Of a stretch of DNA of 64,000 nucleotides, positions 36,684-61,733 are shown one piece after another; the stretch's first letter is position 1; every line of letters starts with the position of its first letter. A model generated the notes under the pieces. That model did not search any database. It had not been told where the DNA came from and saw only the letters and a list, made by a program, of their open reading frames with translations. The stretch is from an uncultured Gammaproteobacteria bacterium (GTDB taxonomy: Bacteria; Patescibacteriota; Patescibacteriia; UBA9934; GWF2-40-263). Both the position numbers and the translations under genes were made by a program. The stretch is taken from assembly GCA_964538435.1 (NCBI GenBank), contig CAZIDX010000004.1, positions 769-64,768 on the forward strand, given 5' to 3'.

Positions 36684-36711
36684 TTGACAAACTTTGAGAT
36701 TTGCGTATACT
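36684..36711 (+). promoter_or_regulatory. sigma70-like promoter (-35 ttgaca within inverted repeat ttgtcaa/ttgacaa; -10 tatact)
   Basis: 16-bp spacer; GGAGG RBS 36725-36729; ATG 36735. Confidence 0.45.
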
Positions 36712-36734
36712 CAAAAGCTGCTATGGAGGCCAAC

Positions 36735-37278: not shown

Positions 37279-37370
37279 GTTGCTGTGTGTGATTTCATTC
37301 ATTCGGCGGAGCCGGGCCGTCTCGCTAGATAGACGACCACCACCTCATGAATGAAATCACACACAGCAAC
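37279..37370. repeat. Family-2 element, site 2: perfect 24-bp palindrome arms (gttgctgtgtgtgatttcattcat / atgaatgaaatcacacacagcaac) enclosing conserved core 37303-37346
   Basis: Core identical to site 1 except 2 nt (cgcAGgat vs cgcTAgat). Confidence 0.65.
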
Positions 37371-39797: not shown

Positions 39798-39820
39798 ATC
39801 TTTCCTTTCCTTTACCTTTA

Positions 39821-40012
39821 ATTGGTTTCGCTTTCGCTCGGATCTCGCTGCGGGGGCTTGGGGCGGCCACGAGGTCGTGATTTAAAAATTCGTTGTAAAT
39901 TTTTTTAAACCACGACCTCGAACGGCCGTTTGGCGTCCTGGGCCTATAGGTGGGGTGGTGGGGGCTGCGACCTGTCAGGCCGTCGAGGCCTTCAGGTCGC
40001 CATCTCCATGGA
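39821..40012 (+). repeat. Family-1 structured interspersed repeat, copy 2 (hairpins 39867-39919 and 39967-40000)
   Basis: Alignment with copies 1 and 3; preceded by CT-rich tract 39800-39820. Confidence 0.7.
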
Positions 40013-40034
40013 GGATGAGCTTTAGAAAATCAAC

Positions 40035-40080: not shown

Positions 40081-40851
40081 TCAGTCGTTGATGACCTTCA
40101 CCGCGGCCTGGGTCGCTCCGGAGAGGTCGAGGCCTGTGCAATTGACGAACTTCACAGCCTGCAGTGTCGCTCCGTGGAATCGGGCTCCAGTCAGATCGCA
40201 CTCCATGAACTTGGCGGCCATGATGACTGTGTTGGTGAAGTCAGCGTTGCGGAAGTCCTCACTGATGTGCTTGACGCTCATCATGTCCTGGCCGCTGAAG
40301 TCTTGACCTTGGGGCTGCTCATCTTCGTCCGGGGCAATGTACTCGCCTTCGTGGATGATCTGTGTGGGCAGGTTGGGGTTAGGCTGATCCTGGTTCTCCT
40401 CGGTAGAGGCTTGGAGCATTTCGTTCATGGTGTAGAAGACACGACCTTCGACCTCGTGGATGTTGGAGTCGGTGAGGTCGGCGTTGTCGACGAGGAGCAG
40501 GTCAGCGCTCAAGGGCAGCATTGTACCGATGAGGCTGGCTCCAGTGAGTTTGATTCCTTCGAAGGTGGTTTTGGACAGGTCACATCCATCCAGATTCGCG
40601 TGGGACAACAGGTTGGAGTCGAAGATGGCTCCATCCAGGTTGGCTCCGCGCAGGTCGGCGTTGCGCAAGATCATTCCGCTGAAGTTTTGCTCGCGCAGAT
40701 CTGTGCCTCGCAGGTCCAGGTGGGTGTAGAACTTGTGGTTGCACGCGGGACATACATGACCCGTCTCTCCGAGATGTGTGTTGTGCAGATCTGCTTCTGC
40801 CAGGGATCCACAATCGGGGCAAGGGGTGTTGGTGGACAGCAGGTCGCTCAT
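40081..40851 (-). CDS. Zinc-ribbon + pentapeptide-repeat protein (GC-rich cargo gene)
   Basis: CPDC...CPAC N-terminus; tandem A(D/N)LxG pentapeptide repeats; GGAAGGA RBS; ORF 39955..40893(+) is its shadow. Confidence 0.7.
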   Translation of the reverse strand: MSDLLSTNTPCPDCGSLAEADLHNTHLGETGHVCPACNHKFYTHLDLRGTDLREQNFSGMILRNADLRGANLDGAIFDSNLLSHANLDGCDLSKTTFEGIKLTGASLIGTMLPLSADLLLVDNADLTDSNIHEVEGRVFYTMNEMLQASTEENQDQPNPNLPTQIIHEGEYIAPDEDEQPQGQDFSGQDMMSVKHISEDFRNADFTNTVIMAAKFMECDLTGARFHGATLQAVKFVNCTGLDLSGATQAAVKVIND

Positions 40852-46500: not shown

Positions 46501-49500
46501 TTATTCTTCAGATGGTGGTGGGGCAAGGTCTTTTGGTAGCTCATAGCCCCCAAAGACGCGTTGGACCATTCCTTCTGCAATATCTGTGTTGAAACGGACG
46601 CGCTCGGCAAGTTTTGCATACTCTGGAGTGTTCTGGAGTCCTTCCTCTGCCATGTTCTCGAGTACGCCCCGCTGCTCAAGGGCATAGACCATTTGACGCA
46701 TAACGCGTTCTCCCTGCGTGTTCCAATCGTTGTCGTAGCCTTTGTCTCGGAAGGCTTCGTAGAGCTGGTCCTTTGGCACACCGAACTCGTTTGCAGCATC
46801 TGTCATTTCTGATTTGTTTGCGAAGAAGCCGATGATGCGTGCGGCTGTAACTTCACCTTCATCGTTATAACGGAAACGGATTTTGTTTTCATCTCCCACA
46901 AACTTTTTAAGAGCTTCGGATGATCCTCCCTGTGGTGATTCAGGGGTTGGTGGTGCTTCAACTGGTGGGGGAGGAGTTGGTTGCGGACCTGCTTTTAGGT
47001 TTTGTTGCAGAGTGTCAGGTTTTTCTGGAGCTCCTGCGCTCGCTGTTGAATTCATGTTTTCAGATAGGTTTGCCGATGCTACCACAATGTCGGCGTCAGC
47101 CATGGCTTGCTGCACAATTGGATTTCCTGCGTCAAGGTATCTTCCGTATTCTGCAAGTTCTTGTGCGATTTGTTGTTTGAGAGCCAGAGCTTCACCAGAG
47201 CCACCTTCTCCAACACCCTCTAGCGCACGTAGGGCCTTTTGCATGACAAAGATCTTTGTTGCGCTGTCTTGGATTTGACTTGAGCTTTCAAGAACACTTG
47301 CTTCTGTAGCTTCTTCCCATCCTTCAACAAGAAGACCTTGAGCACTTTCCACAACAGAAGGTTGTGGGTTTTCTAGTAGCGCTTGGAAGTTTTCAATGTG
47401 TGGTCGTCCTGATGCGTCCAGTGTGAAAGAAACTTCACCAACTCCTTCAACGTTTAAGGATTCGATTGGTGGGATTGCATCAGCTTCAGGGTCGAAGTGA
47501 ACAATTTTATCGTAGTGTGTGAAGAATCCTTTGAGTTCTTGGATTGTTTCGCTTTGCTCATCAATGATTCCAAATTGTTTTAACGCATAATAGTGCATTT
47601 CTGCAGTTGAGATTGTTTCCATTGCTTCGGCAGTTTCTAGCAGGTTGTTTTCTTGCAGTGTTTCCAGTAATTGGTGATATCCAGCGAGGTACTCGGCATT
47701 GTGCTGGAAGATTTCAGTGTACTGTCCTGCTAATTCTTGGTGCATTTCAAGCAAGTGCTGAGTTCCTCCATACATTGCTTCGACTTGAGCAAGTTCCTCT
47801 GCAGAGAGTTCGACGTTATCAAGAGCAAGTCCTTCGACAATATCGGTTGAGTCAGATGCGTATTCAAAGTTGATTGAAGATCCGTCTTCTAGGTCGACTG
47901 TTCCGACACCGGTCCCACCTGGGGCTTCGCGTGGGATTTGGGCGATAAGCTGTTCGGTTGGGTTTGGTGGGTTGCCGTGTTCGTAGATAAATCCTTCAGC
48001 GCGAAGTTCGTCCATGCTGAGTACATCTGGTGTATCGGAGCTGATATCAACAAAACCGATATCAAGACCACCTTCGGTTGCGGTTGCAACTACGGATAGA
48101 TTTCCAATGGCTTCTGTGGCTAATCGGGTGTCACCTCCAGTGCGGACAAGTCCTTCTGCACGTGCTGCTGTGAGAGCTTGCTGGTTTGCCCAAGCGTCCA
48201 CATCACCCTCGCCTGAGAATCCAAAACCTTCTGGGTTCGCTTTGAGTTGGGAGGTGATGAGTCCGATGATGCTGTTGTGCTCGGAATCTGCTGCAACGGT
48301 TCCCATTTGGAGTTTTTCAAGATTAAGGCTTGAGCCTTCTGCCGCGTCTGGAGCAACTGTTGCTTCTGTGTTTGTCTCAGGGGAGGCAGGGGTTGCTTCT
48401 TTTGTAATCGCAGCTTCAGTTTCGGGTGCTGGCTCTGCTTCGGTTGGTGCCCCTGTTTCTGTTGCTGCTTCTGCACTGTCTGTGATTTCAGCTTCAGAGT
48501 CGCTTGAGAACAGATCGTTAAACCGCGTGAAGTTTTCAGCTAGGTTGCTCTTGATGGCTTCTGTTGCTCCAAGTTCTTGGAATTTGTCTATTGATTCAGA
48601 AAGGGAGCTTAAAACACCTTCATCCATTGCTTCGGCTCCAGCCAGGAATCCAAGACCAGTGGCTGTGGCAATGGTTCCGAGGGCCTGTGCTCGGTTCATT
48701 GTGCGCTTCAACCCTGTGTCAGCGTTGTCTCCGTATTTGAGTTTTTCGTAGGTCTCTTGAGCGCCGAATACGAACATTTCATTGAAGTAGCTATCTGTTC
48801 GTTTTCCTTCTTCCATTTCAGCAGTGACCTTTTTATGCCTTTCGTAATATTTGAAACCAGCAAGAACACCCACTCGAGCGATGTTGAGGCCAGACATTGC
48901 TAGCATCGAGTTTATGGTTTGCTTGAGAACCTCTGTGTTCTTGATGCGATTATCAATGGCTGTCTGCAGCGCTTCGTCCATTTCTGCGCGCATATTTTCA
49001 CCAGCATCATCGACTTTCTCCCCATAGGTTTCAATAATTTCGTCCAGCTTGGCTTTCATTTCAGCTTTTTTTTCTGGTGTAAGGTGCTTTGATGATTCAA
49101 TCGCTTGAGCAAGAGCGGCTTTTTTCTGTTCAACAGGATTTGGTTTTTCGCCATCCTCTTCAATAACTTCTTGCGCTTTTTCTATTGCATCGAGGATTCG
49201 ATTACGTTCTTTTTTGGTGAAGATTTTTTGAGAAATATATTTTGGGACGTCAACAAAGCCTTTGAGACCGAAAATATGCAAAGGCACAGCCATACCAACC
49301 CCTCCCACAGATAAAACAGCGTCTGTCACTGTTTCTTCAGCGGTTTCTTTTTCTTCCTGTTTTACTTCACCTGTTGCTTCTCTTCGGATGCGTTTTCCAA
49401 TCGCTCGTGCAACGTTCATGAGCTTGTCTCGTGTGCTGGCAGGTGTTTCTTCTGATGGTTCTTCTGCTGGTTGCTCGCCTTCAGGCGAAGGTTCACCCTC

Positions 49501-49617
49501 AGGCGCTGGTTCTGCTTCAGGTTCTGGAGCAGGTTCAGGTTGGTCTTTTTTGGGTTCGGTTGGCGGATCTTGGGCATTCAATTGATCCATGATGTCGTTT
49601 GCTAGTGGATCACTCAT
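46501..49617 (-). CDS. Hypothetical large (1038 aa) acidic low-complexity protein
   Basis: PE/EA-rich N-terminus, one hydrophobic segment, long acidic helical regions. Confidence 0.5.
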   Translation of the reverse strand: MSDPLANDIMDQLNAQDPPTEPKKDQPEPAPEPEAEPAPEGEPSPEGEQPAEEPSEETPASTRDKLMNVARAIGKRIRREATGEVKQEEKETAEETVTDAVLSVGGVGMAVPLHIFGLKGFVDVPKYISQKIFTKKERNRILDAIEKAQEVIEEDGEKPNPVEQKKAALAQAIESSKHLTPEKKAEMKAKLDEIIETYGEKVDDAGENMRAEMDEALQTAIDNRIKNTEVLKQTINSMLAMSGLNIARVGVLAGFKYYERHKKVTAEMEEGKRTDSYFNEMFVFGAQETYEKLKYGDNADTGLKRTMNRAQALGTIATATGLGFLAGAEAMDEGVLSSLSESIDKFQELGATEAIKSNLAENFTRFNDLFSSDSEAEITDSAEAATETGAPTEAEPAPETEAAITKEATPASPETNTEATVAPDAAEGSSLNLEKLQMGTVAADSEHNSIIGLITSQLKANPEGFGFSGEGDVDAWANQQALTAARAEGLVRTGGDTRLATEAIGNLSVVATATEGGLDIGFVDISSDTPDVLSMDELRAEGFIYEHGNPPNPTEQLIAQIPREAPGGTGVGTVDLEDGSSINFEYASDSTDIVEGLALDNVELSAEELAQVEAMYGGTQHLLEMHQELAGQYTEIFQHNAEYLAGYHQLLETLQENNLLETAEAMETISTAEMHYYALKQFGIIDEQSETIQELKGFFTHYDKIVHFDPEADAIPPIESLNVEGVGEVSFTLDASGRPHIENFQALLENPQPSVVESAQGLLVEGWEEATEASVLESSSQIQDSATKIFVMQKALRALEGVGEGGSGEALALKQQIAQELAEYGRYLDAGNPIVQQAMADADIVVASANLSENMNSTASAGAPEKPDTLQQNLKAGPQPTPPPPVEAPPTPESPQGGSSEALKKFVGDENKIRFRYNDEGEVTAARIIGFFANKSEMTDAANEFGVPKDQLYEAFRDKGYDNDWNTQGERVMRQMVYALEQRGVLENMAEEGLQNTPEYAKLAERVRFNTDIAEGMVQRVFGGYELPKDLAPPPSEE

Positions 49618-49934
49618 AGAGTTTCGATAAATTCACGAACTTTATTGATTTGTTCGTTTCTTGTGATTTGATCTGCAAGTTGCAGAGATTGTTTTTGCAT
49701 ATCATGTGCAGCTTCTTTTTCTTGAGCTTCAACTTTTTTTGCAATGTCATCAAAACGTTCAAGAAGTGCAGCAACAATAGCTTGGTCAGCTTCATGCCAA
49801 GCAGCAACAAGTTCACCAAGGTCTTTCTCCAGCTTTGGGTCGTCACTGAGAGAGAGGAGATCAATAATCATGAGTTTTGTCTCACGGTCCAATGAGCCGT
49901 GTTGCAGGGCATCCAGGAGCTTTTGTCTGTTCAT
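49614..49934 (-). CDS. Small acidic coiled-coil protein
   Basis: ORF overlapping start of 46501..49617 by 4 bp (operon). Confidence 0.4.
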   Translation of the reverse strand: MNRQKLLDALQHGSLDRETKLMIIDLLSLSDDPKLEKDLGELVAAWHEADQAIVAALLERFDDIAKKVEAQEKEAAHDMQKQSLQLADQITRNEQINKVREFIETL

Positions 49935-49937
49935 AGA

Positions 49938-50336
49938 TTAGCTCTCCTCAGCTTTTTTAAGGATGTTTTCAATTTCTTCCATTTCAGAAAGAGCCTGCTT
50001 TTCAATCTCTTTGCGTTGTTCTTGGTACTTTGTTTTGACACGTTCGAGTGTTTCAACAAATTCCTGTGTTTCAATTTGAGTTGCGTCAGCAATGTTTGCC
50101 TCGAGCATGGTAGCGAGCTTGTCTATGAGTTCTGGGGTCATGTCAGGCAGAAGTGCCATGTAGGCATCTTTTACGTCGTCTGGGAGCGATGAGGCAGCCA
50201 TGAGCCAGGCTAGGCGTTCACCTAGTTGTTTTGCCTCCTTTTCAATTTCTTGCTCATTGTTTGTTTGGTCTGTCATACGAAAATATGCTAACTTTGATTC
50301 ACGATATTCATAGTATAGCGTATTTATGCCAGACAT
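49938..50336 (-). CDS. Small acidic coiled-coil protein
   Basis: ORF; first gene of the three-gene minus operon. Confidence 0.4.
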   Translation of the reverse strand: MSGINTLYYEYRESKLAYFRMTDQTNNEQEIEKEAKQLGERLAWLMAASSLPDDVKDAYMALLPDMTPELIDKLATMLEANIADATQIETQEFVETLERVKTKYQEQRKEIEKQALSEMEEIENILKKAEES

Positions 50337-51237
50337 TCAGTATCCATATTTACCAGAGGGTAAGACTATTAAGTACACCAGTGCTGACGATCCTTTCATG
50401 ATCGAGGCATCTAAGGTTCGAGATGGTCAAGCGGGTGATACGTTTTTTCCTGTGGGGAGTGTTCTTGTGAAAGATGGGGAGGTTATTGGTCGAGGAGGGA
50501 ATGGGTTTAACAAGGGGCCAGGGCAGCTTCATATTTGTCCTCGGATTGTTATGGATTGTAAGAGTGGAGAAGGGTATGATTTGTGCACGTTTCATGATTC
50601 TCCTGGGCACAGTGAAGCTATGGCTGTGCAGGATGCAATTCATAACGGGAAGGATCCTAGTGGAGCAGATATTTATATGCATGGGCATTGGTGGGCATGT
50701 GAGCCGTGTTGGACGCAGTTTTTGGAAGCTGGAGGGAATGATATTTATGTGCTTGATGATGCGCACGAGCAGTTTACAAAAGAAAAGATGTATGAGAAGG
50801 CCATGACTACGAGTTTGAAGAGTGCTTATGTTGCAGGAGGAATTACGAACATTGAAGATTTTGATGCCAAGGCAAAGTTTTATGAAGAGATTGGAGGTGT
50901 GTGTGATGAGCTTGGGATTGTTTCAAGGATTCCGCATCGAGATAATGCACTCAATGAAGATCGAGATAAGGGGAATTCGCGTGGGGTGTATGATTGGGCG
51001 ACAAAAGAGGCTCAAGACAATTGTGTAACGATTGCTGAGGTGAGTGATCCTTCGCTTGGGACCGGGGGAGAGATTGTGCATGCTGAGCTCTCGGGAAAGC
51101 CGGTTGTGTTGTATTCAAAGAAAGGGGCGAAGGTGTCAAGGTATGTGCTTGGGAATCCGGCGGTTGTGTATCATGTTGAGTATGAGGATTTAGACGATGC
51201 TAAGCGGCAACTTCGGAATGTGCTTCGGTTGATGTAA
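50326..51237 (+). CDS. Fusion protein: dCMP/CMP deaminase zinc-binding domain + DNPH1/Rcl-like 2'-deoxynucleoside-5'-phosphate N-hydrolase (nucleoside deoxyribosyltransferase fold)
   Basis: HSEAMAV (H-x-E) and ACEPCW (C-x-x-C) deaminase motifs; C-terminal AYVAGGI ... DPSLGTGGEIVHAELSGKPVVLY resembles DNPH1 'PSLGVGYELG'. Confidence 0.7.
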   Translation: MPDIQYPYLPEGKTIKYTSADDPFMIEASKVRDGQAGDTFFPVGSVLVKDGEVIGRGGNGFNKGPGQLHICPRIVMDCKSGEGYDLCTFHDSPGHSEAMAVQDAIHNGKDPSGADIYMHGHWWACEPCWTQFLEAGGNDIYVLDDAHEQFTKEKMYEKAMTTSLKSAYVAGGITNIEDFDAKAKFYEEIGGVCDELGIVSRIPHRDNALNEDRDKGNSRGVYDWATKEAQDNCVTIAEVSDPSLGTGGEIVHAELSGKPVVLYSKKGAKVSRYVLGNPAVVYHVEYEDLDDAKRQLRNVLRLM

Positions 51238-51268: not shown

Positions 51269-51310
51269 GATTGTATTCTTTTCCTCCTTCCTTTTCCTCC
51301 CTTCCTTTTT

Positions 51311-51515
51311 AATTGGTTTCGCCTTCGCTCGAACCTTGCTCGGATCTTGCTGCGGGGGTTTGGGGCGGCCACGAGGTCGTAGGTTAAAAACTCGCAGTAA
51401 ATGTTTTTAAACTACGACCTCGAATGGCCGTTTGGCGTCCTGGGCCTATAGGTGGGGTGGTGGGGCTCTGCGACGTGTCGGCACGTCGAGTGCCTCACGT
51501 CGCCATTTCCACGGG
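51311..51515 (+). repeat. Family-1 structured interspersed repeat, copy 3 (hairpins 51370-51422 and 51470-51503), preceded by CT-rich tract 51283-51308
   Basis: Alignment with copies 1 and 2. Confidence 0.7.
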
Positions 51516-51592
51516 GGATTCGGTTGTGTAAACAAAGAAGCACCCGGAGACGAGCTGCGGGTGCAACTTGTCTCGCGGGTGCGAGAGGGGGG

Positions 51593-51668
51593 TGGGGCCG
51601 GCTGCGGGACTCGAACCCGGAATCTGCTGATTACAAATCAGCTGCTCTACCAATTGAGCTAAGCCGGC
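51593..51668 (-). tRNA. tRNA-Thr (anticodon UGU)
   Basis: RC gives GCCGGCT acceptor, D-arm GCTCAATTGGTAGAGC, anticodon stem GCTGA/TCAGC loop TTTGTAA, T-arm CCGGGTTCGAGTCCCGG, CCA; hairpin+U-run downstream on minus. Confidence 0.85.
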
Positions 51669-51683
51669 TGAGTCGTCTTGAGG

Positions 51684-53198
51684 CTACCTCACATCCTTCA
51701 TGATGGGGGTGAAGTAGACAGCCACGACCCGGGGGGTCAGGTAGTGCCCGTCGACTCGGTACAGGACCAGGTCACCCTCGGAGGGGAAGTACCGGTGGTG
51801 TCCGCGCGCCTGCACCATCTTGAGGTGGCCGTGATGGACCAGCATCTGGGTGCCGCCCTTGGGGTGGCGACCTTGCTCGATCGTGCCGTACCAGTAGCCA
51901 GCTTGGTCGAGCCGGTACTCGAGGCTGTCCTCGAGCTGGGGGTGGCTCAGGCCCAAGCGCCTCCAGGCGATGAATGCCGTGGAGATGGTGTTTTCCGTGA
52001 GGGTCGGGGCGACCACTTCGCGGAAGAAGGCTTCACCTTCGCCCTCCAGATCTACCACGAGGCGGAGCAGGAATGAGAACGTGTGCCGTGTCGCGTAGTG
52101 AGGAGTGTGGGCCAGGTCCAGGCGCTTGGCCAGGGCCTTGCGAGTTCTTGCGTCCAGGCGCTTGAGCTCATCCTCGGGGATGCGGTCGAGGCTCTCGAGT
52201 CCCAGGATGGCCTGGGCGATGTGGGCGTCCACGGCCGCGCTGGGCAGTCGACGCTCCATCTGGACCCGTGCACCCATGAGCTTGTTCGGTGCCTTGGATC
52301 CGCAGATGGCCAGGGCGATGGACAGCTCCTGGTTGGTGAGCATGTCCCAGGGCTTGAAGTCGCCGAAGCAGTAGTGCCACTTCTCGGTCTCGGTGTACTT
52401 GCGCAGGTTCATGGTGAACGGCTCGTTCTGATGCGTGTAGCCGTCACCAGCCTTGAGCGAGGTCAGGCATGCGAGTACTTCCTGGTGGATCAGGTCGAAC
52501 CCGTGGGTGGGATCGGACAGGATGCGGTTGTAGAGGTCGCTTCCGCGGCTGACTGCGATTCCGAGGGAGTGCAGGGTGCTGCGGATGGGGGCGCTGTGGC
52601 GGTCGCCGATGCCGTACTCGATGAAGTCGTGCACATCGTTGGCCATGCCATGCCGAACCTGGGTGCGGCGCAGGCGCTCGATGATGGCCTGGGCGATCAC
52701 CTGACGGGTGACACCAGCCATGATGGCAGCATTGATCCAGCCGTTGTTCCACGAGCCGAAGCGCGGGTACAGCTCGTGGATGAACCGCTCGCGCCACTGG
52801 GGCGAGAGCAGGGTCAGGAGCTCTGCGGACTGGATGAAGCCCTGGAAGAACCAGTGCGGTAGGGACAGGAGCGGGGACTCGAAGTCCGTCTGCGCGGCCT
52901 TCTGCTCGCATGCGGTGTCGTACGCGTGCAGTGCGGCCTGCATGAACAGGTCTGCGTCCCCCACGATTTCGGTGAACTTGGTCGGGTTGGCCATGATCCA
53001 GGGCATGCCTGCAGACTGCGGGATCACTTCGTATCCACAGTCATCGACCAGGAGTGCGAAGCTGAGCATGTCCTCGGGCTTGGCCGTGCCGTCTTCGATC
53101 TTCGCCAGGATGGCGTCACGGGCTGCGTTCAGGCGGTCGTAGGACTCGCCGCGGCCACTGATCCACTGGTGGGTCACGTTCTGGGTCTCGATCTGCAT
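51684..53198 (-). CDS. Hypothetical protein (504 aa from RBS-supported start), first gene of GC-rich island
   Basis: ORF 51684..53276; ATG at 53198 preceded by GGAGGA; ~60% GC by eye. Confidence 0.5.
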   Translation of the reverse strand: MQIETQNVTHQWISGRGESYDRLNAARDAILAKIEDGTAKPEDMLSFALLVDDCGYEVIPQSAGMPWIMANPTKFTEIVGDADLFMQAALHAYDTACEQKAAQTDFESPLLSLPHWFFQGFIQSAELLTLLSPQWRERFIHELYPRFGSWNNGWINAAIMAGVTRQVIAQAIIERLRRTQVRHGMANDVHDFIEYGIGDRHSAPIRSTLHSLGIAVSRGSDLYNRILSDPTHGFDLIHQEVLACLTSLKAGDGYTHQNEPFTMNLRKYTETEKWHYCFGDFKPWDMLTNQELSIALAICGSKAPNKLMGARVQMERRLPSAAVDAHIAQAILGLESLDRIPEDELKRLDARTRKALAKRLDLAHTPHYATRHTFSFLLRLVVDLEGEGEAFFREVVAPTLTENTISTAFIAWRRLGLSHPQLEDSLEYRLDQAGYWYGTIEQGRHPKGGTQMLVHHGHLKMVQARGHHRYFPSEGDLVLYRVDGHYLTPRVVAVYFTPIMKDVR

Positions 53199-53330
53199 TT
53201 GTCTTCCTCCGATCGGGTGTCTTTCTTTGACATTGCCGAGTGAGGTCTTTCTGGGAACCGCCCAGAACGGAGCCAAAAGGCTTGTAGGAATGAAAGGAGC
53301 ATGCGCACATTTGTTGTGCGCGAACGGAGA

Positions 53331-53359
53331 AATATATCATAAAATAGGTGTTTTGTCAA
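53331..53359 (-). promoter_or_regulatory. Minus-strand promoter TTGACAAAA-N17-TATATT
   Basis: Reverse complement of 53331-53359. Confidence 0.45.
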
Positions 53360-53452
53360 TCCATTTAGACAAAAAGTAGGTCTATAATAGTCATTTTTGT
53401 AAAAGTGACTCAAAACTCTCACCATGGTGAGGTTTTTGAAACCTTTGAAATT

Positions 53453-53477
53453 GAAAAGATCCGCTTTGTTGCGGATC
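53453..53477 (-). terminator. Terminator (gatccgc-tttgtt-gcggatc; U-run on minus) overlapping stop of CDS 53477..54322
   Basis: 7-bp stem; A-run 53454-53457 on plus. Confidence 0.45.
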
Positions 53478-54322
53478 TAGAGGCTCAGGCCGGGTTTGGT
53501 TGAGCATTCGTAGAGAAAGCCTTCGTAGGCCTGGTTGACGAGTTGTATCCAGCCGCCATCGCGGGGGATGCGGCTGAGGTCTGGCATTGGATTTGTTTTT
53601 ACACGTCGAGGGCGTACGTGGGTGTGTGCGACGATTTGGAGTCGGAGTTTGTCCGGTCTTTGAGGGTCGCGATCCATGATGCGAGCTGTGATCAGCAGAA
53701 GTCTCATCTCAACGCCGATGACCGCACCTTCTGGTCCGTAGACTTCGGTGGCGGCGTAGATTGCTCCGTGTGCGGCTTTGGTTGAGTAGAGTCGCTTGCT
53801 TGGAGCGAAGTTGCCATGCTCGTCCTGGTTGATGATTGCGATCGGGTCCAGGGGACTGGTGTTTCGTTTGCACCAGACCGCGTAGCAGTCGCGCAGACCG
53901 TTGTTGAACGAGTCTGGGAGTTGTAGCTCGCGTTCGTCTGTGGTGCGGTGTCGCCTGTTGTACTGCCGGCGTCCGCTGCTCAGGATCGAGACAAGATAGG
54001 CTTTTGCACGCTCTCGCTCGGCTTTCTCACAAATGTGATGCCAAGCGAGTCTGTCTGCTGAGCGCATGGAAGCAATGCCATGCTGGAGCAGGTTCGTGCT
54101 TGTAGAGTTTTTCCACTGGCCCGGGATCGTGACATAGTGCCGGTCACGTCCCATTTTAGGTTGAATCAGCTCAGCCGAGGGGGTCTTGGTTGTCTGACAC
54201 AGTTCAAGATGTTTGCGTGCAGCAGCTTCGGAGTCGAATCCGAGTGCGGGTGTGATCAGGGACGTTGTGTCCTGTGTGCTCATCAGTCCAGGAAAAGGCG
54301 CAGTCATTGCATCCTCGTACAT
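53477..54322 (-). CDS. Hypothetical protein (281 aa), GC-rich island
   Basis: ORF; own promoter and terminator. Confidence 0.5.
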   Translation of the reverse strand: MYEDAMTAPFPGLMSTQDTTSLITPALGFDSEAAARKHLELCQTTKTPSAELIQPKMGRDRHYVTIPGQWKNSTSTNLLQHGIASMRSADRLAWHHICEKAERERAKAYLVSILSSGRRQYNRRHRTTDERELQLPDSFNNGLRDCYAVWCKRNTSPLDPIAIINQDEHGNFAPSKRLYSTKAAHGAIYAATEVYGPEGAVIGVEMRLLLITARIMDRDPQRPDKLRLQIVAHTHVRPRRVKTNPMPDLSRIPRDGGWIQLVNQAYEGFLYECSTKPGLSL

Positions 54323-54345
54323 TGGGCGTCATCGCCGGGAGCTGG

Positions 54346-54374
54346 AATTTACTGGACAGAGCGTGTTTTGTCAA
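54346..54374 (-). promoter_or_regulatory. Minus-strand promoter TTGACAAAA-N17-TAAATT
   Basis: Reverse complement of 54346-54374. Confidence 0.4.
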
Positions 54375-54404
54375 TCAAAAAGCAGCTCTTGTGAGCTCCT
54401 TTGT

Positions 54405-55061
54405 TTAGATTTTGAACTGATCTTTAAGATCGGTTAGTTTTCCGCTGATGAGCAGCTCGCGCTCGTCGTCTTTGTCTAGTTTGAACGACGGAGAGCCTGA
54501 GTCTGTGTATTTGGCTGCGCTCATGCCGTGAAGGTTGGCCTCTTCTGGAGTGAGGGATTCGTTCAGCTCTTGGAAGATTACCTGGCAGACGCGCTCGCCT
54601 GGATAGATACGGATGACTTGATCGCCTGCTTCGTTTTTCATTGGGAAGATCAGGTGTCCTTTGTAGCCTGTGTCAATGATTCCTGAGAGTGAAAGGTTGA
54701 TTCCGCGGCGGTTTGTGCTGGTGCGAGGAAAGAGGATGGCCATGAGGTTCATGGCGTTGATCTCGATGCGCTCAAGGCTGGTTGCGATTACGAACTCGTT
54801 AGGGAGAAGGTCAAAGTATTGGCCAGGTTGGAGTTGGACTTCGTCGAATTGTTCGCGGTGTGCGTCAACATCGTCGATGGCTACGTTGATAGCTCGTCGT
54901 CCTTTTTCATCCACTGTCCAGTTGCGGGGGATGAGGAACTTGTAGCCGAGGCGTAGGTCAAGGGCGTGTGGTTGGATTTGAAACTTGTCGAGTTCTGGCT
55001 CAAAGACAAGGTCTTTGTCCTCGATGGATTTGATGATTTGTGATCGTGTAAGTATTCCCAT
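54405..55061 (-). CDS. dCTP deaminase / dUTPase-superfamily protein (Dcd-like) with C-terminal extension
   Basis: N-terminal ILTRSQIIKSIEDKDLVFEP...IQPHALDLRLG; RTSTNRRG; SGIIDTGYKGHLIFPMKN...PGERVCQVIF; the Dcd catalytic Glu position appears to be Pro (alignment by eye). Confidence 0.65.
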   Translation of the reverse strand: MGILTRSQIIKSIEDKDLVFEPELDKFQIQPHALDLRLGYKFLIPRNWTVDEKGRRAINVAIDDVDAHREQFDEVQLQPGQYFDLLPNEFVIATSLERIEINAMNLMAILFPRTSTNRRGINLSLSGIIDTGYKGHLIFPMKNEAGDQVIRIYPGERVCQVIFQELNESLTPEEANLHGMSAAKYTDSGSPSFKLDKDDERELLISGKLTDLKDQFKI

Positions 55062-55119
55062 AGTGCTACTACGTTGCCATATTTTTGGGTATTAGAAAAG
55101 GCCCGGACGAATCCGTGGC

Positions 55120-55671
55120 CTAGCGTGGGGTGACCATGTCTTGGAGTTGCCAGAGGCAAGTATCTCGCAGTGCGTAGTCTTCGTCTGTGAGGGAGCCGCG
55201 ATGCCACTTAGCCAGAGCCAGCCAGCACTTCATGGCGTCGCTGGCGCGATTGCATCGAAGTGCCAGGTAAGTGGCCATGCGCAGTGTCCCTTTAGGAAAT
55301 CGAGTGCGAGTTGCAACTGGAGGGATCTTTTCGACCACCTCCCAGGCAGCATTGTCTCGTCCGAGGATTACGAGTGCCCAGGCGCCGTGGGCGTAGCGGT
55401 TGAGGATATTTTCGCCGTAGAAGCAGAACGGCGCTCCGTCAAGGATGCGACTTGCTAGGACAGCGTTAGGATTCTCGTCGCAGAGCCAGATTCGAGGGAG
55501 ATCAGCAAGGGATTCTGGTGATGGCTTCATGCCCTGAAGAGCCAGGGCAAGGATGCCATCGATCTTTTCTGGTTGATCGAAGACGAGAGTTTCGTTGATC
55601 CAGCTGCGCGGGGGCGGCTTTGTGACGTCCATGGCGTTGGGGTATTGCTTTGGTTCGTTTGTGACTACCAC
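55120..55671 (-). CDS. Hypothetical protein, GC-rich island
   Basis: ORF 55120..55683 (TTG); GTG at 55671 with GGGAGGA RBS. Confidence 0.4.
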   Translation of the reverse strand: MVVTNEPKQYPNAMDVTKPPPRSWINETLVFDQPEKIDGILALALQGMKPSPESLADLPRIWLCDENPNAVLASRILDGAPFCFYGENILNRYAHGAWALVILGRDNAAWEVVEKIPPVATRTRFPKGTLRMATYLALRCNRASDAMKCWLALAKWHRGSLTDEDYALRDTCLWQLQDMVTPR

Positions 55672-55696
55672 GTTTCCTCCCAAATGGCTTCAGTGG

Positions 55697-55725
55697 AGGA
55701 TAGATAAAAACGGTCTTTTTGTCAA
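55697..55725 (-). promoter_or_regulatory. Minus-strand promoter TTGACAAAA-N17-TATCCT
   Basis: Reverse complement of 55697-55725. Confidence 0.4.
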
Positions 55726-55763
55726 CCAAAAAACCCGCTTTGCAGCGAGTTTTTCATTTTGGT

Positions 55764-56444
55764 TTATGCTCCAGCGTTGATCTTGATTCCAGGGCCGATT
55801 GTAGATGAAATACTTGCGCCCTTGATGTAGATTCCTTTTGCACCTGCTGGCTTGAGACGCTTGATTTGATCTAGAAGCGCTTCAAGGTTCTGTGCGAGCT
55901 GTTCTTCTGTGAATGATGCTCGTCCAAAGACTTGGTGAATGTTTCCTGTGTTGTCGTTTTTGAAACTCTCTTTACCAGCCTTTTGATCCTCAACCATTTT
56001 CTTTACGTTTGGTCCTACAGTGTCAGACTTTGGGTTTGGCATGAGTCCGCGAGGTCCGAGGAAGCGCGCAAGCTTTGCGAGCTTTGGCATCATGGTTGGA
56101 GTTGCAACAGCGACATCAAAGTCAATGTTTCCTTTTTGAGCAATTTCTTGGATGAGCTCTTCGTTTCCAACGAGGTCTGCTCCAGCTTCCTTTGCCTCTG
56201 CTTCCTTTTCAGGTTCTACGAATGCAGCAACGCGCTTTGTTTTTCCTGTTCCGTGTGGAAGAGAAATGGTTCCGCGTACTTGCTGATCAGACTTTGAAGG
56301 GTTGATTCCTAGTTTTACGTGAAGCTCGATTGCCTCGTCATACTTTGCGGTTGCAAGCTTCTTTGAAAGTGTAAGCGCTTCTGGGATCTCGTAGATCTTG
56401 TCTTTGTCTACTTGAGATCGCGCTTCTGTCATTCTTTTTGTCAT
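55764..56444 (-). CDS. rplA: 50S ribosomal protein L1
   Basis: Characteristic L1 sequence; follows rplK. Confidence 0.9.
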   Translation of the reverse strand: MTKRMTEARSQVDKDKIYEIPEALTLSKKLATAKYDEAIELHVKLGINPSKSDQQVRGTISLPHGTGKTKRVAAFVEPEKEAEAKEAGADLVGNEELIQEIAQKGNIDFDVAVATPTMMPKLAKLARFLGPRGLMPNPKSDTVGPNVKKMVEDQKAGKESFKNDNTGNIHQVFGRASFTEEQLAQNLEALLDQIKRLKPAGAKGIYIKGASISSTIGPGIKINAGA

Positions 56445-56499
56445 AGTGTTCTATTAGTGGTCTAGCGCCATGCCAGTGGCAGAGCTCCCACGATTTAGA

Positions 56500-56925
56500 T
56501 TAACCTTTGATTTCGAGTCCCATTTGCTTTGCTGTGCCTGCAATAATCTTCATTGCTTGCTCAACATCATCTGTGTTGAGGTCAGGCATTTTCTTTTCAG
56601 CAATTTCTTGGAGCTGTGCGCGAGTGATTGAACCAACTTTGGTGGTCAAAGGGTTGCCAGATCCTTTTTTGATCTTTGCAGCCTTCTTGAGCATGTCAGA
56701 GGCTGGTGCTGTTTTTGTAACAAAGTCGAATGATCGATCTTCGTATACGTTGATGATGACCGGAACGATCTCACCGCGACGTTCTTTGGTAGCTCCATTG
56801 AACATGTTCACGAAGTCTCCGATTGGGAGTCCGTGCTGACCAAGTGCTGGTCCGATCGGTGGGGCAGGGGTAGCTGCGCCTCCTGGGATTTGCAACTTGA
56901 TCTGCGTAACGAGTTTTTTCGCCAT
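56500..56925 (-). CDS. rplK: 50S ribosomal protein L11
   Basis: [33 protein letters not shown]. Confidence 0.9.
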
Positions 56926-57007
56926 AGTATTGATATTTACTGGATTCCGCTGCCCGTAGGTAGCAGCAACCAGACTATGAATAATTATCTAGCTTCGGGA
57001 GGGTACA

Positions 57008-57559
57008 CTAAACTTCCTTAACTTGCAAGAAGTCGAGCTCTACTGGAGTCTCGCGTCCAAACATGGAAACAAGCACCTTAACCTTACCGCGCTCTTCGTC
57101 GATTTCAGCCACTTTTCCTTCCTGGTCTTTAAACGGACCGTCGGTGATAAGTACAGGTGATCCTTTTTGCAGATCAAGCTTGTATTCAGGTTCATCAACA
57201 CCCATGCGTTTCTGGAGAGAGTCGATTTCTTCTTGAGCGATTGGAGTAGGGGTTGTTCCGGTTCCAATGAATCCAGTCACGTTTGGTGTGTTTCGTACAA
57301 CGTACCAAGAGTCGTCTGTAACGATCATTTCCACGAGCACGTATCCAGGGAAGATTTTTTCTTCAATGGTTTTTCGTTTTCCGTTTTTGATCTTGATCTT
57401 CTTTTCCTTTGGTACCAAGACGTGAAAGATTTTCTCTTCCATGTCCATGGTCTCAATACGTTGATTGAGGTTCTCAGATACGTTCTCTTCGTATCCTGAG
57501 TAAGTGTGGATCGCGTACCAACGTCGACCCATGTTTGCTGTTTGCTTTGCCATACTCAC
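57008..57559 (-). CDS. nusG: Transcription termination/antitermination factor NusG
   Basis: NGN domain WYAIHTYSGYE; C-terminal KOW. Confidence 0.9.
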   Translation of the reverse strand: MSMAKQTANMGRRWYAIHTYSGYEENVSENLNQRIETMDMEEKIFHVLVPKEKKIKIKNGKRKTIEEKIFPGYVLVEMIVTDDSWYVVRNTPNVTGFIGTGTTPTPIAQEEIDSLQKRMGVDEPEYKLDLQKGSPVLITDGPFKDQEGKVAEIDEERGKVKVLVSMFGRETPVELDFLQVKEV

Positions 57560-57690
57560 GTCTTCAAAATTGACGATCTTTCAGTTCGTGTCTGTGCACT
57601 TCGACGATGTACCGATCAGTACACCTTACTGCAGTGCTCGACACTCACTGAAATCTCATTCAATTTTGCAAACGTTCAATGTTTAAAAAA

Positions 57691-57915
57691 TTAAGAGGTA
57701 AGTGAGATAAGCTGCTCTAGTCCAATGTTGAGCAACCAGTCTAATCCTCCAAAGAAACCAGCAATGATTAGACAAAGAACAATAGTGATAATTGAGTACT
57801 TGACGGTTTCCTTGCGGCTTGGCCAAGTGACTTTTTTCATCTCGCTTCGAGATTCACTAACGTAGCGAAAGAGCCATTTAATAGGATTCTCTTTCTCAGT
57901 AGTTTTGGTTTTCAT
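57691..57915 (-). CDS. secE: Preprotein translocase subunit SecE
   Basis: 74 aa, single C-terminal TM; canonical secE-nusG-rplK-rplA order. Confidence 0.8.
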   Translation of the reverse strand: MKTKTTEKENPIKWLFRYVSESRSEMKKVTWPSRKETVKYSIITIVLCLIIAGFFGGLDWLLNIGLEQLISLTS

Positions 57916-58024
57916 AAAATAAAGCGTGTAGCGGTTAGCGGGTAGCGAGTAGTCTATTCGCTAAACGCTATTCGCTCTTTAGCTGAAGTATTTTAAAAAC
58001 GGGCCCTGGGCCCATTCGATGAGA

Positions 58025-58053
58025 ACTATAAGGTATCTAGGGTATTTTGTCAA
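58025..58053 (-). promoter_or_regulatory. Minus-strand promoter TTGACAAAA-N17-TATAGT upstream of secE operon
   Basis: Reverse complement of 58025-58053; hairpin GGGCC-CAG-GGCCC+U5 just downstream of predicted TSS. Confidence 0.45.
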
Positions 58054-58076
58054 TGGGGTGGGGACAATTGAAAAAC

Positions 58077-58093
58077 CGGCTGGGAGGCCGGCT
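58077..58093 (-). terminator. Terminator hairpin ccggc-tgggag-gccgg (U-run on minus) after CDS 58109..58525
   Basis: 5-bp GC stem; plus-strand A-run 58071-58075. Confidence 0.4.
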
Positions 58094-58108
58094 TGGCGTG
58101 GAGCGCGA

Positions 58109-58525
58109 TCATTCGATCGGGTTTCCTGTGAGAGGGTTCTTCCACTCTGCTCCCTTGGGACCGTTGGCGGTCGTCTTGATCACACAGGACTCGAGATGTT
58201 CTCCGGGCATGAACACGTAGTAGCGTACCTGGTGGCCAGAGCGGTCGGGTACACGGTCGCCTGGTGCGAGCTCTCTGCTCCAGCGAACGGTTTCGCCCTT
58301 GAACAGCCAGGTAGAGCGGATGTGGACGGGGTGATCGTTGTTGTTTTTTACCCAGCCAGGTGCTGCATGGCCTGTCACCTCGACGCCGCACTGCTCAGTG
58401 CGGGCTTGGAGGTGGTCGGAACGTTCCCAGTGGGGGACAATGCTGATGTTGGCGGCCGCAGCCAGTCCCAGAGGGATAAGCATGATCGCGCCAAGCATCC
58501 AGAGGCCTCTGGTCGACATGGGCAC
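58109..58525 (-). CDS. Hypothetical small secreted protein (GC-rich)
   Basis: Signal peptide MPMSTRGLWMLGAIMLIPLGLAAAA. Confidence 0.45.
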   Translation of the reverse strand: MPMSTRGLWMLGAIMLIPLGLAAAANISIVPHWERSDHLQARTEQCGVEVTGHAAPGWVKNNNDHPVHIRSTWLFKGETVRWSRELAPGDRVPDRSGHQVRYYVFMPGEHLESCVIKTTANGPKGAEWKNPLTGNPIE

Positions 58526-58555
58526 CTCCTAAGGTGTTTGTGTGAGAGTGGGGGA

Positions 58556-59035
58556 TTATTCGGGCTTAGGCACCTCTTCTATGCGGAGGAGTAGGTGGAG
58601 ATCACCGAATTGGATGTGGTGCCTTGCATGACTGAGGTAGATGTGCACGAAGGAGACAGGGATGCAGTTTGCAGGGTCAATGATCACACCGTCGATCAGG
58701 ATGGTGTCGGTTGGCTCGTTTTGCCGGTACTTTTTTCTGTTTGGCTGGGATGCTTTTTGTCGCTCGGTGAGCTCGCTGGCGTGCTCCTTGTGGGCAATCA
58801 ATAGCACACAAGGTTTTTGCATCGTCTCCCTTGCTTGCAAAGTTAGAATGTCATCAGAAGCAAGGTTTGCCAGATGGTTGGGGATGTGGTGTCTGAGGAG
58901 CTCCCTGTCCATGAGGATTGTTGGGTTGTATCCTAGGGGATCTGCTGGAGGGGAGCACTCAATGGGTGTGCTAAAGGAGATGTCCAAAGGCTCTCCTGTG
59001 ATTGCATCGATGATACAGAAGCGGAGCATTAGCAT
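58556..59035 (-). CDS. Hypothetical protein
   Basis: ORF with GGAGG RBS (plus 59041-59046 cctccg). Confidence 0.45.
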   Translation of the reverse strand: MLMLRFCIIDAITGEPLDISFSTPIECSPPADPLGYNPTILMDRELLRHHIPNHLANLASDDILTLQARETMQKPCVLLIAHKEHASELTERQKASQPNRKKYRQNEPTDTILIDGVIIDPANCIPVSFVHIYLSHARHHIQFGDLHLLLRIEEVPKPE

Positions 59036-59068
59036 TTTTGCCTCCGTGAGTTTATGAGAGAACCAGTA

Positions 59069-59097
59069 TTATTAGCAAGTTTTTGTGAATTTGTCAA
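59069..59097 (-). promoter_or_regulatory. Minus-strand promoter TTGACAAAT-N17-TAATAA
   Basis: Reverse complement of 59069-59097. Confidence 0.4.
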
Positions 59098-59100
59098 TAC

Positions 59101-59127
59101 AAAAACCCGCAACGTGATTGGTTGCGG
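59101..59127 (-). terminator. Terminator (cccgcaac-gtgattg-gttgcgg; U5 on minus)
   Basis: 8-bp stem; plus A-run 59101-59105. Confidence 0.5.
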
Positions 59128-59146
59128 ATTCTTTACTTTGAAATAT

Positions 59147-61733
<2,587 letters not shown>

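Follow-up and report, generated by a model that had tools for sequence, protein, structure and literature searches.

Does a GC-rich stretch of DNA that borders a tRNA gene and holds several genes of no known family mark the arrival of a mobile island? The question is raised by positions 51593-55760 of the 64,000-nt stretch analysed here (the whole of which we call the window), where a tRNA-Thr gene is preceded on the minus strand by four genes, p183, dcd, p281 and p504, that separate it from rplA. The original prediction took these genes for the independently expressed cargo of one island acquired at the tRNA gene, including a Dcd-like enzyme that would deplete or modify nucleotides in phage defence. 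In this study we show how the region compares with related loci, and the comparison suggests that it is not a mobile island inserted at a tRNA gene but a conserved chromosomal neighbourhood with variable slots. We consider it probable that these slots hold single-gene units and that no single element was inserted here. One of these units, p504 with a structured RNA leader in front of it, accounts for most of what is unusual in the composition of the region and is treated separately below.

Backbone genes and variable slots

The RplA protein of the window shares 73-78% identity with metagenome-assembled genomes of Candidatus Uhrbacteria, which belong to the Candidate Phyla Radiation (CPR, or Patescibacteria). 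Related loci, gathered around RplA relatives or from contigs encoding homologues of the unknown proteins, bear L-numbered labels such as L083 and L088; the contigs of P0001 and P0002 are further ones, which carry p504. The identities of rplA are 74-88% in four Uhrbacteria relatives (L001, L083, L088 and L089) and 56-87% across all related loci. A backbone of gyrB-secE-nusG-rplK-rplA-dcd is common to 12 related loci, and a convergent deaminase-like gene is conserved in L003, L004, L005, L008, L010, L012, L083 and L088. In L083 and L088 the backbone runs on via two small open reading frames (ORFs) and a giant ORF to folA, thyA and tmk, which are found further along in the window as well, where ThyA, DHFR and Tmk were confirmed.

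Three gaps between these backbone genes are variable slots: A between gyrB and secE, B between rplA and dcd, and C between dcd and the deaminase-like gene. L005 and L008 represent a minimal state, in which slots B and C are empty and rplA, dcd and the deaminase-like gene are contiguous. The occupants of the slots are single-gene transcription units that evolve fast, are mostly unrelated to one another and belong to no known family; those of the relatives were also searched in the family libraries and gave no match. Their G+C content at third codon positions (GC3) is typically 0.2-0.45 above that of the host core genes, with values of 0.82-0.86 in L012, 0.78 in L009 and 0.75 in L089.

On the minus strand of the window the order is gyrB, p147, p159, p138, secE, nusG, rplK, rplA, p183, dcd, p281, p504, tRNA-Thr(UGU), a terminator and a repeat of ~210 nt. 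The features of the region and its borders are these:

59580-61724, minus: gyrB, a backbone gene
57920..59579, minus: contents of slot A (p138, p159 and p147), between gyrB and secE
55764..56444, minus: rplA, an ORF that closes the conserved secE-nusG-rplK-rplA block; backbone
about 55728-55749, minus: rplA terminator, a hairpin with a T-run seen in the sequence
55697..55725, minus: p183 promoter (TTGACA, 17 nt, TATCCT; promoter scan), directly after the rplA terminator
55120..55671, minus: p183, an ORF occupying slot B, with a terminator-like hairpin at 55100-55120
54405..55061, minus: dcd, dCTP deaminase with a dUTPase fold, 218 aa (PF22769, TIGR02274)
54346..54374, minus: p281 promoter (TTGACA, 17 nt, TAAATT; promoter scan)
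53477..54322, minus: p281, an ORF in slot C, with its terminator at 53457-53478
53331..53359, minus: p504 promoter (TTGACAAAAC, T-rich spacer, TGATATATT; promoter scan)
53199..53324, minus: structured 5' leader of p504, ~125 nt (alignment of nine leaders)
51684..53198, minus: p504, an ORF of 504 aa (ORF list)
51593..51668, minus: tRNA-Thr(UGU) with its CCA end encoded (tRNA scan), between the p504 stop codon, which is 15 nt away, and the slot terminator
51530..51564, minus: slot terminator, GCACCCGCAGCUCGUCUCCGGGUGC then a U-run (from the sequence), conserved with L083
51275..51530, minus: a copy of the ~210-nt structured repeat ("family 1"; repeat comparison), outside the gene units
50326..51237, plus (convergent): deaminase-like gene with a dCMP/cytidine deaminase domain and a nucleoside 2-deoxyribosyltransferase-like domain (Pfam); backbone, far border of slot C

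Much of what the original prediction had described can be found in this map. The tRNA-Thr(TGT) and the four minus-strand ORFs were confirmed at the positions that it had given, one of the genes is indeed Dcd-like, the proteins of 504 and 281 aa lack any recognisable motif (no family match), and the family-1 repeat lies beyond the tRNA, with two more copies in the window. Each gene had also been credited with a promoter and a hairpin terminator of its own. The terminators are present, a hairpin with a T-run following p183, dcd, p281 and the tRNA. For the promoters the statement holds only in part: the four genes have three consensus promoters between them (TTGACA, 17 nt, -10 box), at 55725, 54374 and 53359, but the promoter scan gave none in front of dcd, and the form TTGACAAAA is also present elsewhere in the window. 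With 8 occurrences in the window against 1.5 expected, some of them before genes outside the region, TTGACAAAA is a general promoter form of the host and not specific to an island.

The nearest relative of the window is L083, with 81-85% nucleotide identity in the core genes and a synonymous divergence (dS) of 0.6-1.0 there, which is near saturation. Slot A is empty in L083, spanning 114 bp as opposed to 1.66 kb in the window, where it contains three ORFs of no known family, p138 (GC3 0.71), p159 (0.61) and p147 (0.41). Other GC3-rich genes of no known family occupy this slot in L012 (540 aa, GC3 0.82), L009 (334 aa, 0.78) and L089 (216 aa, 0.75). Homologues of p183 are found in slot B of L083 (54%), L085/L086 (about 60%), L001 (29%) and L012 (26%). 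For p281 a copy with 68% identity holds the same position in L083, and only three clusters of homologues were found among 5.8 billion sequences. Neither p183 nor p281 has a Pfam, NCBIfam, PADLOC or PHROG match. Compared with L083, the ratio of non-synonymous to synonymous divergence (dN/dS) is 0.23 for p183 and 0.16 for p281, at a dS of 1.5-1.8 versus 0.6-1.0 in core genes. These ratios mark both as real genes with a quick evolution, and we regard them as clade-restricted genes that were inherited with the backbone under purifying selection. A recent arrival of the two, as cargo of an island, is contradicted by their same positions in close relatives and by dN/dS values of 0.16-0.23.

The case of dcd is different from that of its neighbours in the slots. 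Synteny in 12 relatives, the TIGR02274 score, host-like codons and purifying selection all indicate that it is a native housekeeping dCTP deaminase gene, part of the vertically inherited backbone and not cargo. It follows rplA in the 12 related loci with 64-94% identity (94% in L083 and 64-83% in the others), and its dN/dS is 0.04. Its codons are those of the host (AAA 85%, CAA 82%, ACA 56%), and its raised GC3 is due to C-ending codons only. The protein matches PF22769 with E = 3.5e-27, the only other Pfam matches being PF00692 and PF06559, and it reaches 95.5 bits with the TIGR02274 equivalog model, above the cutoff of 92.8. Compared with the housekeeping Dcd proteins of that model, its length, fold family and pyrimidine-deoxynucleotide neighbourhood fit and nothing notable differs. 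The neighbourhood of dcd is one of dTTP synthesis, comprising the dCMP-deaminase-like gene, folA, thyA and tmk, and presumably Dcd feeds dUMP to ThyA here.

Signs of a role in phage defence, as had been proposed for this cargo, were not found. PADLOC gave only a weak and irrelevant restriction-enzyme match for Dcd (E = 0.005), and in PHROGs Dcd alone among the proteins of the region found a match, as a dCTP deaminase of the ordinary kind. The dCTP deaminase known from anti-phage defence is a protein of 576 aa that combines an N-terminal kinase domain with a C-terminal zinc-dependent cytosine deaminase domain and is located in defence islands; these two domains and a length above 350 aa are what defines it (bioRxiv 10.1101/2021.04.26.441389). 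The Dcd of the window has the same nominal chemistry, dCTP deamination, but with its 218 aa and dUTPase fold it possesses neither the kinase nor the zinc-deaminase domain, and it has no relevant PADLOC match and no defence-island context. What looked like defence cargo thus appears to be an ordinary housekeeping gene of nucleotide metabolism.

How a slot may change its occupant can be seen in slot C. In L083 an unrelated ORF of 219 aa with a GC3 of 0.82 takes the place of p504 and the tRNA. The window and L083 can be aligned up to the promoter (TTGACAAAAC.CCTATTTT.TGATATATT; the promoter region reads GGATTGACAAAACACCTATTTTATGATATATTTCTCCGTTCGC in the window and GGGTTGACAAAACCCCTATTTTCTGATATATTCTCTCGTTGC in L083). 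The alignment resumes with the first base past the tRNA and covers the shared terminator (GCACCCGCAGCTCGTCTCCGGGTGC then a T-run), and the DNA in between is unrelated. The promoter of L083 keeps an initial transcribed sequence of the p504 type (CGTTGC). Because of this remnant, and because five Uhrbacteria assemblies carry p504 in slot C, p504 is probably the older occupant of the slot and the 219-aa gene of L083 the newcomer.

These observations can be combined into a possible course of events. The slot units of the window (p183 with dcd, p281, p504) each have a consensus promoter, each gene being followed by a terminator-like hairpin, and p504 forms a self-contained module of promoter, structured leader of ~125 nt, ORF and terminator. 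In L083 the leader and ORF have been swapped for an unrelated gene between the same promoter and terminator, presumably by homologous recombination in the flanks. In the lineage of the window a tRNA-Thr gene came to be placed ahead of the terminator, just past the p504 stop codon, where it is probably co-transcribed with p504. The cassettes of integrons come to mind as a comparison. Integron cassettes are promoterless and end in attC sites that are used by the IntI integrase. Like them, the units discussed here are unrelated single genes that replace one another between conserved flanks at a fixed chromosomal position; unlike them, they have a promoter and terminator of their own, and the conserved flanks are the promoter and the terminator themselves. 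No integrase domain was found within or beside the slots, and no attC-like repeat at the unit borders.

What part, then, does the tRNA gene play? Elements that target tRNA genes sit at the tRNA 3' end. In the window the four genes share the minus strand with the tRNA and lie upstream of it, on its 5' side. We searched the window for att sites with tRNA 12-mers (exact), 16-mers (up to one mismatch) and 20-mers (up to three mismatches). No tRNA-fragment repeat was present in or beside the region, so the direct repeat of the tRNA 3' end for which the original prediction had proposed a search at the far boundary was not found there; a single exact match of 12 nt, attributable to chance, lies 3 kb away (48282-48293). 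The four ORFs of the region gave no integrase or recombinase match in Pfam, NCBIfam or PHROGs, the only matches being those of Dcd, and since no ORF apart from dcd matches Pfam there is no integrase domain among them. The tRNA-Thr ... rplA neighbourhood itself had been described as conserved; no tRNA lies near rplA in 17 out of 17 related loci scanned, and an empty site with the tRNA retained was not seen in any relative. As the tRNA is absent at this place in every relative, it is itself part of the variable DNA, a lineage-specific addition and not the boundary of an island.

A single island acquired at tRNA-Thr, with four independently expressed cargo genes and a Dcd-like defence enzyme among them, therefore has to be judged against a good deal of contrary evidence. 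It is true that the GC content of the window peaks in this region, with a tRNA at one end, that three of its four genes belong to no known family, and that its units are expressed separately from promoters and terminators of their own. Integrative islands targeted to tRNA genes resemble it in so far as they are compositional outliers beside a tRNA gene with accessory genes to which no function is assigned. Such islands differ from what we see here, which is a tRNA that is the novelty in a mostly conserved synteny, genes 5' of it, no duplicate of its 3' end and no integrase domain. An island is moreover hard to reconcile with a dcd that is syntenic and native in 12 relatives, with p183 and p281 in the same positions in relatives, with a tRNA that the relatives lack, and with a sole PADLOC match that is weak and concerns a restriction-enzyme model, the defensive dCTP deaminase differing in fold and architecture. 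We regard this explanation as very improbable. Conservation of the genes at this locus in relatives, to which the original prediction itself had pointed as an argument to the contrary, was found by synteny comparison for dcd, p183 and p281. Of the notion of horizontally acquired cargo, it stands that p183, p281 and p504 are accessory, compositionally deviant and motif-less and that the segment of p504 and the tRNA is replaced in L083; it fails for dcd, which appears native, and for p183 and p281, which are shared in the same positions with close relatives. A mobile island cannot be called from a GC-rich stretch beside a tRNA gene alone, and in the present case synteny overturned the call.

The p504 family and its structured leader

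As had been predicted, the region is rich in GC: its content is 56.6% compared with 47.2% in the rest of the window, which makes it the GC maximum of the window (z = 7.2 among all windows of equal size). Sliding-window GC and tetranucleotide analysis revealed, however, that the excess is not uniform. The gene p504 has 63.8% GC and a GC3 of 0.87, and its tetranucleotide usage correlates with that of the genome at -0.01, where 1.5-kb controls have a mean of 0.78 and a minimum of 0.57. Both p183 and p281 have 56-57% GC and a GC3 of 0.62, with tetranucleotide correlations of 0.21 and 0.38, respectively, and dcd has only 50% GC, a GC3 of 0.59 and a correlation of 0.53, within the control range (5th percentile 0.47). 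The compositional outlier is essentially one gene, p504.

A word-indexed search found only four relatives of p504. With an exhaustive profile search the number rose to 137 clusters, of which 46 were below 1e-30. The window copy and ten other members had no match in Pfam; PADLOC gave none for the window copy and three other members, and NCBIfam and PHROGs none for the window copy. A sequence-profile search of the PDB with the family alignment reached a best E of 0.15. An AlphaFold model based on a 31-sequence alignment (pLDDT 93.2, pTM 0.89) predicts a helical body of approximately residues 1-432 and a small C-terminal beta-barrel, which indicates that p504 is a real, folded protein. In Foldseek searches of the PDB and BFVD neither this model nor a shallower earlier one (pLDDT 72) had a match below E = 0.01, the best in the PDB being E = 0.06 with TM values of at most 0.2. 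Only the C-terminal barrel weakly resembles oligonucleotide/oligosaccharide-binding (OB) folds, namely those of uS12, RPA32 and the N-terminal domains of LysRS and AspRS (Foldseek probability 0.5-1.0, E = 0.06-0.8), and it is this weak similarity that points to a possible role of p504 in RNA binding. The invariant or near-invariant positions of the protein are mostly hydrophobic or aromatic, with Arg, Gly and Pro in addition, and no catalytic constellation is evident among them.

In five Uhrbacteria assemblies (the window, L001, L088, L089 and the contig of P0002) p504 lies in slot C, with identities of 34-50%. Among Uhrbacteria its identity is 37-42% where RplA, Dcd and GyrB have 74-83%. A second group of homologues belongs to a lineage of 58-62% GC (L081, L082 and L092), where the order TatD-MetRS-RsmI-DUF3179-p504-...-M17-radical SAM is conserved and p504 has 38% identity compared with 68-70% for the neighbouring M17 peptidase and radical-SAM genes. 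The locus search with a 12-sequence alignment gave one metagenome locus. Judged by these comparisons, p504 represents an unnamed family that evolves fast wherever it is found. A tblastn search of phage and plasmid records with family members gave no match, and no viral contig matched the p504 protein pattern.

The same promoter and leader precede 9 of the 10 p504 homologues for which DNA is available, the distant member in L090 being the one without them. The promoter of this type consists of TTGACAAAA, a T-rich spacer and TGnGATATnCT. The leader has a length of 90-125 nt and ends with CUCACU-NGG-CAA-(4-bp stem and variable loop)-N-CCN-AUCGGAG, which is followed by 5-9 nt and the ATG. We aligned nine leaders from slot C, the rplU locus and the GC-rich lineage, a small sample in which two pairs are close relatives. 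In this alignment 97.1% of cells are standard pairs and 7 of 16 pairs have compensatory double changes; none of 500 shuffles reached the observed values, and slid controls were 27-53% paired. The middle helix covaries as UCGG/CCGA, UUGG/CCAA and UGGG/CCCA, the inner helix as UGUC/GACA, CGCA/UGCG, CGCC/GGCG, CGUC/GACG and UGCC/GGCA, and an upstream hairpin of 5 bp covaries as well. RNAalifold, applied to five long leaders, independently arrived at the same helices and added an outer one, (C)CUC:GAG(G), in which the Shine-Dalgarno sequence would be paired. The helices were recovered when the window leader was folded alone (minimum free energy z = -2.65).

A covariance model built from the nine leaders scores them at 57-75 bits, with 69.8 bits for the window copy (53198-53269). 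While these nine matches arise by construction, the informative part is the absence of others: no further match was found in the 429 kb of the window and related loci. Rfam 15 gave no match in the window at the gathering threshold over the leader, and when positions 53150-53480 were scanned to E = 10 nothing appeared over it either, only two chance miRNA-hairpin matches (E above 5) upstream of the promoter. The motif was also absent from the viral contigs scanned. The leader may hence be seen as a candidate translational control element, absent from Rfam and tied to one protein family. It resembles the autoregulatory leaders of ribosomal proteins and riboswitches that sequester the ribosome-binding site in having a covarying stem-loop just before the start codon, invariant unpaired nucleotides and the Shine-Dalgarno sequence in or next to the closing helix. 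It differs from them in that it has no match in Rfam 15 and in that its gene encodes an uncharacterised protein of 480-520 aa, neither ribosomal nor metabolic. The fold would pair the Shine-Dalgarno sequence with the invariant CUC, so that translation might be gated by whatever binds the conserved loops. Our most economical guess, and a tentative one, is autoregulation, in which p504 itself binds via its C-terminal OB-like barrel as in the autoregulated leaders of ribosomal proteins; a small-molecule ligand is the alternative. The region thereby yields a testable candidate for a cis-regulatory RNA not in Rfam, tied to a family whose confident model has no Foldseek match.

Codon composition of p504 and competing explanations

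The codons of p504 are far from those of its host: AAG makes up 100% (30% in the host), CAG 91% (26%), CTG 57% (11%) and ACA 3% (47%). This is not a peculiarity of the window, as in every lower-GC host examined the GC3 of p504 is above that of the host (0.69-0.89 compared with 0.27-0.67), as follows:

Window: p504 homologue GC3 0.87; host core/neighbour genes about 0.45
L001: p504 homologue GC3 0.89; host core/neighbour genes 0.47
L088: p504 homologue GC3 0.69; host core/neighbour genes 0.27-0.35
L089: p504 homologue GC3 0.85; host core/neighbour genes 0.61-0.66
L093: p504 homologue GC3 0.81; host core/neighbour genes 0.51-0.67
L090: p504 homologue GC3 0.85; host core/neighbour genes 0.41-0.48

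In the GC-rich lineage p504 has a GC3 of 0.80-0.89, which matches its neighbours there. The G3/C3 skew of p504 tracks the local skew of each host. Core synonymous sites are near saturation even in comparison with the nearest relative, yet distant copies of p504 in slot C stay high in GC3. This pattern fits a long residence during which GC3 was held up by selection on the mRNA or DNA or by GC-biased gene conversion, and it also fits a repeated import from unsampled GC-rich donors. Two other ideas were discarded. Adenine mutagenesis of the type of diversity-generating retroelements is no cause of the GC excess, third-position A and T being equally depleted (0.07 and 0.06), and the adjacent tRNA-Thr(UGU) is no supplier for the codons of p504, as ACA is found in 1 of its 30 Thr codons.

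It might be possible that p504 and its leader are an undescribed RNA-regulated module, situated beside translation genes in CPR and in the GC-rich lineage, whose synonymous sites are actively held GC-rich (0.7-0.9 compared with 0.3-0.66 in the hosts) through selection on mRNA or DNA or through GC-biased gene conversion at a recombination hotspot. We put this forward as a speculative proposal that is more likely wrong than right. If it were true, the GC excess seen here would be no mark of recent transfer, and the slot genes across this CPR clade would exceed the core in GC, whereas accessory genomes are usually AT-rich. What makes it worth considering is that p504 keeps foreign-looking codons across hosts with saturated synonymous sites, in slots whose other occupants are GC3-enriched too. 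Should the pattern be general in CPR, it would bear on how composition-based detection of transfer is to be read in reduced, AT-leaning genomes, and on biased gene conversion or mRNA-level selection as forces that shape accessory genes.

Several observations weigh against a conserved neighbourhood whose slots hold resident single-gene units. The codon usage of p504 is what one would expect of a fresh import from a GC-rich donor. Other members of the family adjoin rplU in L093 and an L25 gene in L090, so the module has moved, and p504 is missing from the nearest relative L083 as well as from L003, L004, L005, L008, L010 and L012. In a neighbour-joining tree, which is star-like with long branches and of unreliable topology, the slot-C copies are not grouped but interleaved with those of the 58-62% GC lineage. 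Regulation by the leader and RNA binding by p504 are read from sequence and a structural model, the sample of leaders is small, and the CUC:GAG helix with the Shine-Dalgarno sequence lacks covariation support; since this helix is invariant, covariation neither supports nor contradicts it. Some of the same observations would be accounted for if p504 and other GC3-rich slot genes had been acquired independently and at a recent time in each Uhrbacteria lineage from GC-rich donors, for example a host organism, at recombination-prone gaps and had not yet ameliorated. Donor-like codons, patchy presence among relatives, members at other loci, a tree incongruent with the slot-C grouping, and a promoter and leader that travel with the gene all agree with repeated import, as does the observation that the composition of the family is native where contigs have 58-62% GC, its locus there being a conserved one with a DUF3179 gene on one side and a peptidase M17 gene on the other. 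On the other hand, five independent insertions into one slot would call for some mechanism of targeting, of which there is no sign; copies from different contexts share at most 50% identity, so that no donor and recipient are in evidence; the p504-type CGTTGC in the promoter of L083 suggests that p504 was there first; and the G3/C3 skew of p504 matches each host. We consider repeated import unlikely, though it is a rival to be taken seriously.

With single-gene units in the slots of a conserved neighbourhood still the reading that we prefer, one may ask whether p504 serves in genetic conflict. Its module, and perhaps other slot genes, could be anti-phage, anti-host or immunity factors caught up in an arms race, the leader being a sensor that switches translation on under attack. 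Very fast divergence of the protein beside slow neighbours in two unrelated lineages, the high turnover of the slots, single-gene units with strong promoters and invariant positions among which no conserved catalytic residues are evident would suit such a function. The absence of PADLOC matches (window copy and three members), of a PHROGs match (window copy) and of matches in phage and plasmid records or viral contigs does not, nor do neighbours that are housekeeping genes and not defence islands, and we think a conflict gene improbable here. Another concern is that the p504 segment might be an artefact of assembly or binning, a chimeric join from a GC-richer member of the metagenome. An independent assembly of the same strain, L087, which is 100% identical to positions 53403-59782 of the window, ends at 53403, just before the p504 promoter, and in that assembly p504 is alone on a contig of 1.8 kb (the contig of P0001). 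Nevertheless, in four other independent assemblies dcd is immediately followed, on the same contig, by a p504 homologue, which makes a chimera unlikely; the flanks of p504, its promoter on one side and the terminator on the other, have their orthologues in L083; and short unitig-style contigs break at repeats and strain variants. The chance that p504 was joined in error is in our opinion very slight indeed. Strain-level polymorphism or repeats at the unit borders may be the reason why L087 and the contig of P0001 break there.

Further features of the window

Some minor observations concern genes, promoters and repeats around the region. Downstream of the deaminase-like gene, at 46501-50336, lies a conserved trio, p1038, p106 and p132, in which a giant ORF (1038-1412 aa) is accompanied by two small ones. 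Relatives share it, the giant ORF having 1040 aa in L083 and 1412 aa in L088, there with a match to FtsK_gamma. The window copy has no Pfam match and is fast-evolving (56% identity to L083, dN/dS 0.23). Three single genes elsewhere in the window have a raised GC3. A pentapeptide-repeat protein is encoded at 40081-40851 (minus strand, GC3 0.74) with a TTGACAAAA promoter match at 41002, and a NADAR-domain protein at 6778-7281 (plus strand, GC3 0.71), which has no TTGACAAAA match nearby and a weak PADLOC match to PDC-M42C (E = 3e-4). The third, a protein of 186 aa without known family, is encoded at 36669-37229 (plus strand, GC3 0.66), with TTGACAAAA on the opposite strand at the start of the gene (36667-36675). 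The accessory-looking genes of this genome are richer in GC than the core, in reverse of the usual pattern; a literature search on GC-rich accessory genes in Uhrbacteria or Patescibacteria found nothing relevant.

The T-run of the rplA terminator (55728-55749) leads straight into the -35 box of the p183 promoter (55720-55725). Compact terminator-promoter modules are also found in relatives, in L094 at 20-60, in L092 at about 5845-5880, in L093 at about 7870-7900 and in L082 at about 2270-2300. In several relatives the terminator hairpin of the upstream gene has the -35 sequence TTGACA in its loop and the T-run doubles as promoter spacer, an example being CCGACGA-TTGACAT-TCGTCGG-TTTTTTGATAT.

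The ~210-nt repeat is present in three copies of the same orientation (6520-6720, 39800-40030 and 51275-51530) that are 81-84% identical. It forms a long conserved hairpin with compensatory changes in 9 of 53 predicted pairs. Rfam gave no match for it, and its 17-nt core is absent from the 94 related loci; at the orthologous spot L083 has only approximately the first 25 nt. It is either a gene for a small structured RNA or a mobile element of the miniature inverted-repeat (MITE-like) type, short and non-coding. As a border of cassettes it was rejected, given that the copy at 6.5 kb lies beside the plus-strand NADAR gene, that it is absent from the 94 related loci and that L083 has a stub only. 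Two hairpins of ~100 nt (22061-22158 and 37279-37370), for which Rfam gives only sub-threshold matches to miRNA hairpins, share an apical part of 42 nt that is 95% identical (GGCGGAGCCGGGCCGTCTCGC..GATAGACGACCACCACCTC). Their stems of 31-34 nt are unrelated in sequence, and each is 90-94% self-complementary.

Finally, the cumulative GC skew climbs over nearly all 64 kb of the window, and third positions are asymmetric between the strands, with G3 ~0.35 and C3 ~0.10 in plus-strand genes and C3 ~0.33 and G3 ~0.13 in minus-strand genes. From this strand asymmetry and the steadily rising skew it follows that the window belongs to a single replichore and that its mutational skew is pronounced.

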